A stretch of DNA of 64,000 bases from Candidatus Saccharibacteria bacterium CPR2 (GCA_021404905.1 QWHN01000002.1:13582-77581), one strand, 5' to 3'. Counted from the first letter of the stretch, positions 20,664 through 20,795 are shown. Notes: generated by a model from the letters alone, not told the origin. Program-made: numbers and translations.

Positions 20664-20795
20664 GGGGACGTTTCGCGTCCTAAGTGTGGGGGGTGAGTGG
20701 CCTCTGGGCGATCCCGAGAAGGGTGTGCGAACAAGTCGCATTACCGCCCAGAGGCCTTACCACCCACTTTTTAGCCGGAAGAAATCCGGCTTACG
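20664..20795 (-). ncRNA. unassigned GC-rich structured RNA (three-way junction plus flanking hairpins)
   Basis: A 12-bp helix (20699-20710 with 20745-20756) is extended by a 6-bp helix (20691-20696 with 20760-20765). Together they enclose two hairpins (20713-20723 and 20726-20740). Extra hairpins lie at 20774-20790 and 20666-20680. Strand is inferred from the promoter at 21033-21061. Confidence 0.4.

Follow-up and report, generated by a model that had tools for sequence, protein, structure and literature searches.

The DNA analysed here (the window) is a stretch of 64,000 nucleotides (nt), one strand, from Candidatus Saccharibacteria bacterium CPR2 (GCA_021404905.1, QWHN01000002.1:13582-77581), a member of the Saccharibacteria (TM7) within the Candidate Phyla Radiation (CPR). 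The window is gene-dense and 40% GC, and the genes around the element under study, a strongly folding, GC-rich block at positions 20664-20795, lie almost all on the plus strand. The block falls within 20588-21154, at 567 nt the window's longest non-coding gap, which separates a pfkB-family kinase gene on the plus strand (ending at 20587) from the gene of a conserved 411-amino-acid (aa) protein whose function is not assigned. Reduced CPR genomes rarely keep 500 bp of non-coding DNA. Besides the element, the gap holds two tRNA-like genes on the minus strand, preceded by a candidate promoter. Open reading frames (ORFs) over the block overlap the tRNA-like genes, and the longest of them has no homologue.

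At the core of the element lies a Y-shaped long hairpin (20686-20767, strand not set), which appeared in the minimum-energy folds of both strands. It is built on a perfect helix of 12 bp, in which GGCCTCTGGGCG (20699-20710) and CGCCCAGAGGCC (20745-20756) are 100% complementary and which an outer helix (20686-20696 with 20757-20767) extends to about 20 bp, and its interior carries two short hairpins, CCC-GAGAA-GGG (20713-20723) and TGCGA-ACAAG-TCGCA (20726-20740). Folding of the 82-nt hairpin yielded -51.1 kcal/mol on the plus and -48.2 kcal/mol on the minus strand, compared to an average of about -29 kcal/mol for shuffled sequences (z of -6.4 and -6.1, respectively), and none of 500 shuffles was equally stable. 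Across the 141-nt and 82-nt segments, z ranged from -5.7 to -6.5 relative to composition-matched shuffles. Taken alone, the two interior hairpins were marginal (z of -2.3 on the plus and -1.5 on the minus strand), so that the three-way junction itself stands out only marginally from shuffles. Immediately after the last pair of the Y-hairpin (20767), the plus strand reads T5 (20768-20772), from its sequence a candidate U-tract that would stop read-through from pfkB.

Further hairpins are predicted on either side. Hairpin A (20773-20791, strand not set) has a GC-rich stem of 7 bp and a 5-nt loop, a predicted energy of -11 to -12 kcal/mol and a z of -4.1 to -4.5, and begins 5 nt downstream of the discriminator base of the nearer tRNA-like gene. 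On the other side, the folds contain a local hairpin B, GGACG-TTTCG-CGTCC (20666-20680, strand not set), which overlaps the 5' arm of a long-range helix, T1, so that the two are alternative foldings; in the longer fold, the T1 pairing beats hairpin B. T1 (20597-20681, minus strand) pairs 20681-20669 with 20618-20606 and is followed by the tail UUCUUUUUU (20605-20597); its helix reaches 13 bp on the minus strand because two G-U pairs are included. The exact alternative is a 10-bp pairing of 20609-20618 with 20669-20678, followed by TTTTTTCTTTTTT on the minus strand, where the T-rich run after T1 measures about 12 nt. T1 is more stable on this strand (-23.8 kcal/mol, z of -5.6) than on the plus strand (-19.1 kcal/mol, z of -3.0), and with its tail it may terminate the tRNA-like operon. 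Across about 82 kb of DNA from this organism, that is the 64-kb window plus about 18 kb of flanks, no perfect and GC-rich inverted repeat of 10 bp or more occurs besides the Y-helix and T1.

Much of this architecture had been picked out in an earlier, sequence-only reading of the window. The GC-rich block in an AT-rich genome (GC of 0.57-0.60 against 0.40 for the window), the 12-bp perfect helix with its extension over an internal loop and both flanking hairpins were all recovered, and the proposed alternative pairing with 20610-20618 ahead of a minus-strand U-run turned out to be exact. Its three-way junction fared only partly as well, as both hairpins are present in the folds but barely better than shuffles. 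Passed over at the time were the T5 run flush with the main hairpin on the plus strand and the location of the block between convergent units.

The pfkB gene (plus) and the tRNA-like genes (minus) converge on 20588-20795, and both long hairpins fall between them; read along the plus strand, the Y-hairpin comes 99 nt after the stop codon of pfkB, and read along the minus strand it follows the last of the tRNA-like genes, which places it at the 3' end of both units. Each of the two long hairpins is flush with a U-run, each on a different strand, and each is more stable on that very strand, so that a GC-rich hairpin followed by a U-tract, as expected of a terminator, is found in the Y-hairpin on the plus and in T1 on the minus strand. 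Because of these flush U-runs and the convergent arrangement, the simplest reading is a terminator or trailer: we favor the view that the element serves a phage-like cassette of tRNA-like genes, acquired recently, as its structured 3' trailer, as a terminator or as an insulator, and give this view slightly less than an even chance.

The cassette was inserted antisense within an operon that is co-directional in relatives, and it is because of this antisense placement in a co-directional gene string that both large hairpins come to lie between convergent units. Under this reading, the cassette transcript would start at about 21026 on the minus strand, run through a tRNA-Val(AAC)-like gene and then a tRNA-like gene with an expanded D-loop, continue into a trailer of about 200 nt comprising hairpin A, the Y-hairpin and T1, and end at the U-run at 20605-20597. 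Cuts by RNase P and RNase Z at the tRNA-like modules would free this extensively base-paired trailer as an RNA in its own right. The Y-hairpin with its U5 would stop or slow plus-strand read-through from pfkB, while on the minus strand T1 with its U-run would stop the cassette's own transcript. In the simplest version, the two hairpins would act as a pair of opposed terminators or insulators that also form the base-paired 3' trailer of about 200 nt.

Comparison with intrinsic terminators at convergent gene ends speaks both for and against this interpretation. Shared with them are the GC-rich stem flush with a U-run, the position at the end of a transcription unit and the partner hairpin on the other strand. 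In addition, phage tRNA-like genes with expanded D-loops, described further below, likewise precede long hairpins, at least one of which (L094) is a textbook terminator with a 22-bp stem followed by T6. Several observations, however, argue against a plain terminator. The interiors, 34 nt and branched in the Y-hairpin and 50 nt in T1, are atypical for intrinsic terminators with their loops of 3-8 nt, only five U residues follow the Y-hairpin on the plus strand, and neither structure is a simple stem-loop with a loop of about 3-10 nt. A consensus terminator scan allowing loops of up to 8 nt found 0 sites in 20300-21400. The clear terminators of this genome are small, simple hairpins of 5-7 bp, such as GTCGGCC-GAAA-GGTCGGC at 46364 and GCACC-ATCT-GGTGC at 59312, both with a T6 run behind them; moreover, terminator-like sites are not enriched over shuffles in the window, and its other convergent gene junctions lack comparable hairpins. 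Finally, among the phage matches listed, long-range hairpins are enriched after tRNA-likes with expanded D-loops, not after ordinary tRNAs, and mostly lack U-runs, which hints at a functional coupling beyond termination.

For the trailer itself, there is a bacterial parallel. The 3' external transcribed spacers of tRNA operons can survive as small RNAs, as exemplified by 3'ETS-leuZ of Escherichia coli. Like 3'ETS-leuZ, the element comes straight after the final tRNA-type gene, shares its strand and ends at a terminator-like hairpin, and its trailer would be released by tRNA 3' processing. It differs in that no target or sponge function can be inferred, in its non-canonical tRNA-like neighbors, and in a trailer that is about 200 nt long, almost fully base-paired and not conserved.

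We then compared the region with known RNA families using Rfam 15. At gathering thresholds, the whole window returned two tRNAs only, with no match on the element, and a search of both strands of 20550-21100 at E ≤ 10 returned nothing but chance-level eukaryotic small nucleolar RNA (snoRNA), microRNA (miRNA) and plastid models. The best match on the element was a trypanosomatid snoRNA model with 18 bits against a gathering score of 50, and no match to the element itself was better than E = 0.56, the models concerned being eukaryotic snoRNAs and miRNAs. Features of the signal recognition particle (SRP) RNA, RNase P RNA, transfer-messenger RNA (tmRNA) and 6S RNA were absent from the element, and the by-eye exclusion of RNase P, SRP and tmRNA in the sequence-only reading thus holds in the Rfam 15 scan, which yielded no family. 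The scan of both strands proposed in that reading produced no confident family match, and the description of an unassigned, strongly structured, GC-rich segment beside tRNA-type genes stands, as Rfam offers no family for it.

These results bear on the idea that the element is a divergent RNA of a known family (SRP, 6S, riboswitch, ribozyme or Y RNA) that the Rfam models miss. CPR RNAs are often divergent, and hammerhead ribozymes and purine riboswitches are built around a three-way junction; against this stand the Rfam values just given, the lack of a GNRA tetraloop and of the SRP helix-8 motif, and the consideration that an essential RNA would be neither species-specific nor absent from the syntenic site of the closest relative, as the element is (see below). 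The hammerhead ribozyme was considered specifically and rejected: the junction strands (GUAA/CA/AU on the minus, AU/UG/UUAC on the plus strand) lack the CUGANGA plus GAAA core, and Rfam gave no match. Membership in a known family is therefore already largely refuted and, in our estimate, very improbable.

The history of the locus was traced through the gene that closes the gap. The 411-aa protein (21155-22390, plus strand), whose sequence is identical to an NCBI entry from Candidatus Saccharibacteria bacterium CPR2, has no Pfam domain, many invariant residues and more than 2,600 homologues at 57-65% identity across the Saccharimonadia, and a LOG-like (SLOG cluster 4) gene always follows directly after its gene. 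Via this protein, syntenic loci were retrieved from 80 Saccharimonadia species and from the closest relative, L083, which is 86% identical. In L083, only 68 nt separate pfkB from the 411-aa gene, and homology to the window resumes at about 21097; in about 70 other species, the spacer measures about 0-150 nt, typically about 50 nt, and relatives have no hairpin between the two genes. A BLAST search of 20591-21150 against the 80 related loci returned no match. Because L083 and the approximately 70 other species lack the block and BLAST found nothing, 20588-21096 is an insertion in one species, extending from the pfkB stop to the native upstream region of the 411-aa gene. This lineage-specific insertion (strand not set) spans about 500 bp and comprises the trailer, the Y-hairpin, the two minus-strand tRNA-likes and their upstream region.

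Strains of the same species diverge by 0.3-0.6% from the window, yet all of them carry the block unchanged, with no polymorphism and hence no compensatory change in it. In the surrounding segment 17358-25390, strains L001 and L093 differ from the window by 20 and 37 single-nucleotide polymorphisms, all of which fall in 17358-19355 and none in 19356-25390; this mosaic suggests a recent recombination or sweep of the segment carrying the insertion.

Searches for homologues were extended to several further collections. BLAST of the block against phage and plasmid collections found no match. Viral contigs contained 0 matches to an 18-mer pattern from the junction and 0 to a pattern of the Arg-like anticodon arm plus T-arm, a pattern of the tRNA-like 3' half recovered one unrelated phage tRNA-Leu only, and one of the Val anticodon arm gave a single chance match in coding DNA. 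In metagenomes, a junction 20-mer matched once, by chance, in a high-GC contig (L087). To catch mis-called homologous elements, a spurious 98-aa ORF over the element was compared to 5.8 billion proteins, without a match, and a covariance model of the Y-hairpin, run over 1.6 Mb of Saccharibacteria and phage DNA, found only itself. As far as these collections show, the element is an orphan.

The claim of an RNA gene in the sequence-only reading is not borne out by these comparisons. That reading would have given up the claim for a region neither conserved nor transcribed, and the first of these two applies at the syntenic site, where the region is absent from L083 and about 70 species; neither BLAST nor the covariance model, the patterns or the ORF search produced a homologue. 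As the block is an insertion missing in relatives, an RNA gene gains no support from conservation or covariation, and nothing in the sequence comparisons supports a conserved one. The label 'unassigned structured RNA' is true in a narrow sense, namely that the element matches no family and folds strongly.

A species-specific insertion without homologues could also be functionless: foreign DNA in decay, such as a piece of a phage or island or a degenerate tRNA, brought in together with the cassette. Apart from its restriction to one species, this would fit with both neighboring tRNA-likes being non-canonical and devoid of an encoded CCA, and with an 11-nt match (repeat family D4; 10 of 11 bases) between an arm of the hairpin and the 3' end of tRNA-Val. 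However, a perfect 12-bp helix, extended to about 20 bp and 60% GC in a reduced genome of 40% GC, would not persist for long unselected, a second helix of this kind lies next to it and both are flush with a U-run, and strains with differences elsewhere share exactly the same block. We consider a mere remnant quite improbable.

Mobile palindromes offer a further explanation. Miniature inverted-repeat transposable elements (MITEs) and palindromic repeats occur in bacteria, with Correia and ERIC as examples. Like these, the hairpin is intergenic, measures about 80-130 bp, has imperfect terminal inverted repeats of about 25 nt and would form a long hairpin if transcribed; it could thus be a DNA-level feature, a palindromic mobile element of MITE type that landed beside the tRNA-likes. 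Its arms are identical at 21 of 25 positions with one 2-nt indel, as terminal inverted repeats should be, and its interior is barely more structured than chance. Unrelated Saccharibacteria elements with near-perfect inverted repeats of 24-32 bp and interiors of 60-90 nt occur where relatives have no spacer, and the pfkB/411-aa spacer appears to be a hot spot of insertion in 9 of about 80 species. Unlike Correia and ERIC, however, the hairpin is without family members: it was found as a single copy in the 64-kb window and in the approximately 82 kb with flanks, with no related copy in the 1.6 Mb of Saccharibacteria and phage DNA and no transposase gene nearby. Nor is there a target-site duplication, as the flanks (ending in CCTAAGT on the left and starting with TTTTTAGCC on the right) share no direct repeat. 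Overall, a MITE-type origin strikes us as improbable. An AT-rich direct repeat of 18 nt (20641-20658 and 21139-21156) was considered as a target-site duplication and set aside as chance, because it does not bracket the insertion as defined by homology to L083.

The spacer itself varies in other lineages. In 9 of about 80 species it is expanded to 358-1243 nt and filled with unrelated sequence, so that it looks like an insertion hot spot; the loci with an expanded spacer, lying upstream of position 2501, are L010, L012, L028, L034, L036, L052, L059 and L078. Small ORFs inside the expanded spacers have no Pfam match, and the spacer of L034 is probably just a frameshifted pfkB. The unrelated intergenic elements with near-perfect inverted repeats mentioned above (L036 2335-2453, L036 3742-3849 and L028 5293-5423) have branched interiors and are possibly mobile palindromes; all of them lack a U-run, and one lies between two genes whose counterparts in other species overlap. 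In L059, a non-coding stretch of 640 nt (4440-5000) contains a stand-alone T-arm with the 3' strand of an acceptor stem, which ends in ACCA (GAGGTTCGAATCCTCGCACGGACACCA), followed by several GC-rich long hairpins, and ARAGORN and Rfam call neither a tRNA nor a tmRNA there.

We now turn to the tRNA-like genes next to the element. The nearer one (20796-20910, minus strand) is not called by ARAGORN or Rfam, yet its minimum-energy fold is a cloverleaf. It has a perfect acceptor stem of 7 bp, a D-stem GCUC/GAGC, a T-arm GAGGG-UUCGAAU-CCCUC and the residues G18, G19 and A20, and encodes no CCA. A hairpin of 38 nt (20856-20893) is inserted in the D-loop ahead of G18G19, which enlarges this loop to 48 nt, compared with 7-11 nt in canonical tRNAs. 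The anticodon arm, UCCCGA-UGGCGCA-UCGGGA, is 19 nt long with a 6-bp stem and has GCG at the anticodon position, but its loop carries G33 and C37 in place of the canonical U33 and purine 37 and can zip up to 8 bp with a 3-nt loop. ARAGORN calls the gene tRNA-Arg(GCG) only after the 38-nt insert is deleted, and Rfam gives a weak match to mascRNA (15.7 bits). CPR bacteria normally use tRNA-Arg(GCG) (PMC8629427), and the UGGCGCA loop is unlike that of the usual CPR tRNA-Arg(GCG). An alternative assignment, in which the 38-nt insert would be the anticodon arm and the palindromic arm would be taken for a class II variable arm, was rejected because it leaves no D-stem.

The second gene (20939-21014, minus strand) is of tRNA-Val(AAC) type and is called by both ARAGORN and Rfam (51 bits). 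Its anticodon arm is likewise 19 nt long (6 bp plus a 7-nt loop) instead of the standard 17 nt, A34 is unusual for bacteria, its GC content is 43% and no CCA is encoded; for comparison, the window's ordinary tRNA-Leu(TAG) (59409-59493) is 66% GC with an encoded CCA. Of the 'tRNA genes' in the earlier description, tRNA-Val(AAC) is thus the only one called, and the gene adjoining the element is recognized only once its D-loop insert is removed. Upstream of the Val gene by 18 nt lies a promoter-like site (21033-21061, minus strand), where TTGCAA (21061-21056) and TATAAA (21038-21033) are separated by 17 nt. Judged by these hexamers, TTGCAA-17-TATAAA may be the promoter of the tRNA-like operon; a consensus scan rejects it for want of a T at position 6 of the -10 hexamer. 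In NCBI, the flanking proteins carry the locus tags 02235, 02245 and 02250, with pfkB presumably being 02240, and this consecutive numbering suggests that the public annotation has no tRNA in the gap. Both non-canonical tRNA-like genes of the insertion are missed or mislabelled by standard annotation.

One of the expanded spacers shows a similar arrangement. In L078, which belongs to a second Saccharibacteria lineage, the pfkB/411-aa spacer (1258-2500) carries on the minus strand of the locus a tRNA-Phe(AAA), a tRNA-Gly(GCC) and a tRNA-like gene with a D-loop of 22 nt and an anticodon loop of 6 nt. Downstream of the latter lie at least five hairpins with perfect stems of 11-13 bp and, after these, at 1401-1354, a canonical type III hammerhead with the CUGAUGA plus GAAA core and stems I-III (23 bits, E = 0.018). 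Because of this similarity, viral contigs (IMG/VR, loci L094-L213) were scanned for expanded D-loops, using one narrow pattern for tRNAs with D-loops of 18-48 nt. The scan returned at least 120 loci, with at least about 50 distinct phage matches having perfect acceptor stems and T-stems. Among the matches listed is a group (L153, L095/L146, L208, L108, L198 and L141/L128) with a hairpin of 20-46 nt ahead of G18G19 and a non-canonical anticodon loop, the very layout of the window gene and the L078 gene. Where the insert precedes G18G19 in the matches listed, the anticodon loop has 4-6 nt, or 7 nt without U33. We found no description in the literature searched of phage tRNA-likes with a D-loop insert and a defective anticodon, and nothing relevant on tRNA-like RNAs or D-loop insertions in CPR bacteria or Saccharibacteria.

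Complementarily, the DNA downstream of these genes was examined for perfect inverted repeats (at least 10 bp, with 12-120 nt between the arms). Within 300 nt downstream of 16 D-loop-expanded tRNA-likes (L094-L208, among the matches listed), such repeats occurred at 1.78 per kb, whereas the remainder of these contigs had 0.31-0.35 per kb and the DNA downstream of 672 ordinary phage tRNAs 0.33-0.43 per kb. This approximately 5-fold enrichment among the matches listed rests on 8 repeats in 4.5 kb, at 7 independent loci. Three of the downstream hairpins (L095, L111 and L167) are Y-shaped.

These phage data raise a further possibility, which we regard as rather doubtful: the Y-hairpin could be a functional RNA module acting in concert with the adjoining tRNA-like gene, whose D-loop is expanded and whose anticodon is defective. 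That gene's tRNA-like part would then serve as a handle for processing, stabilization or recruitment (via RNase P, RNase Z, the CCA-adding enzyme and, as a possibility, a synthetase), the long-stem RNA would act as effector once released, and the two would form a composite RNA unit, not described before, that is common to phages and some Saccharibacteria. In favor of such a coupling are the many phage tRNA-likes that combine a perfect acceptor stem and T-arm with a D-loop hairpin and a non-canonical anticodon loop, the downstream enrichment and Y-shapes just described, and L078, where the same intergenic site holds a tRNA-like, long hairpins and a hammerhead that could cut the 3' end. Against it, the phage hairpins share no sequence or structure with one another, none of the neighboring proteins recurs as a possible partner, the enrichment comes from few repeats, the phage set was chosen by a single narrow pattern, and the element in the window has no covariation support.

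Extended to the whole class, the element would be one instance of a composite unit in which a tRNA-like gene with a D-loop hairpin and no working anticodon loop, retaining acceptor stem, T-arm and elbow, precedes one or several hairpin RNAs that have long stems and are often branched. Units of this kind would be common in phages and occur occasionally in chromosomal hot spots of Saccharibacteria, with the tRNA-like recruiting or decoying the tRNA-processing or tRNA-binding machinery and the hairpin RNA as its co-released partner; taken as a whole, we hold this proposal to be doubtful. On its own, the element matters little: it is an orphan hairpin restricted to one species, and its most likely role is to end or insulate transcripts. 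The part that deserves attention is the class of D-loop-expanded, anticodon-defective tRNA-likes with long hairpins downstream. Should this association hold, tRNA mimics that carry a structured RNA would form a new class, relevant to the conflict between phage and host over tRNA, and the insertion would be a tangible example of how RNA cargo of phage type enters the chromosome of a member of the Saccharibacteria.

Known RNAs resemble this arrangement in part. As in GOLLD and ROOL, a highly structured RNA candidate lies beside tRNA-type genes with mobile or phage affinities; these two, however, are conserved families of 500-800 nt with covariation, whereas the element is an orphan of 82-200 nt, and the Rfam models of GOLLD and ROOL matched neither the window block nor L078. 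In MALAT1-mascRNA (PMC8457004), a tRNA-like cloverleaf likewise abuts a structured RNA, and with such an arrangement cleavage by RNase P or RNase Z would define the end of the neighbor. That system is eukaryotic and has the tRNA-like 3' of a long RNA, whereas here it lies 5' and would be processed in the way proposed above.

A second group of phage genes emerged from the same scan. Among the matches listed, these genes (L106, L116, L132, L137, L155, L156, L159, L168, L171, L186, L200, L201 and L125) have a normal 7-nt anticodon loop and are nearly all tRNA-Lys(UUU). They carry a mini-hairpin of 2-4 bp after G18G19 that is capped by a GNRA loop (GAAA, GUAA or GCAA), with the exception of L171 (GUAU), and the stems of these mini-hairpins co-vary between phages.

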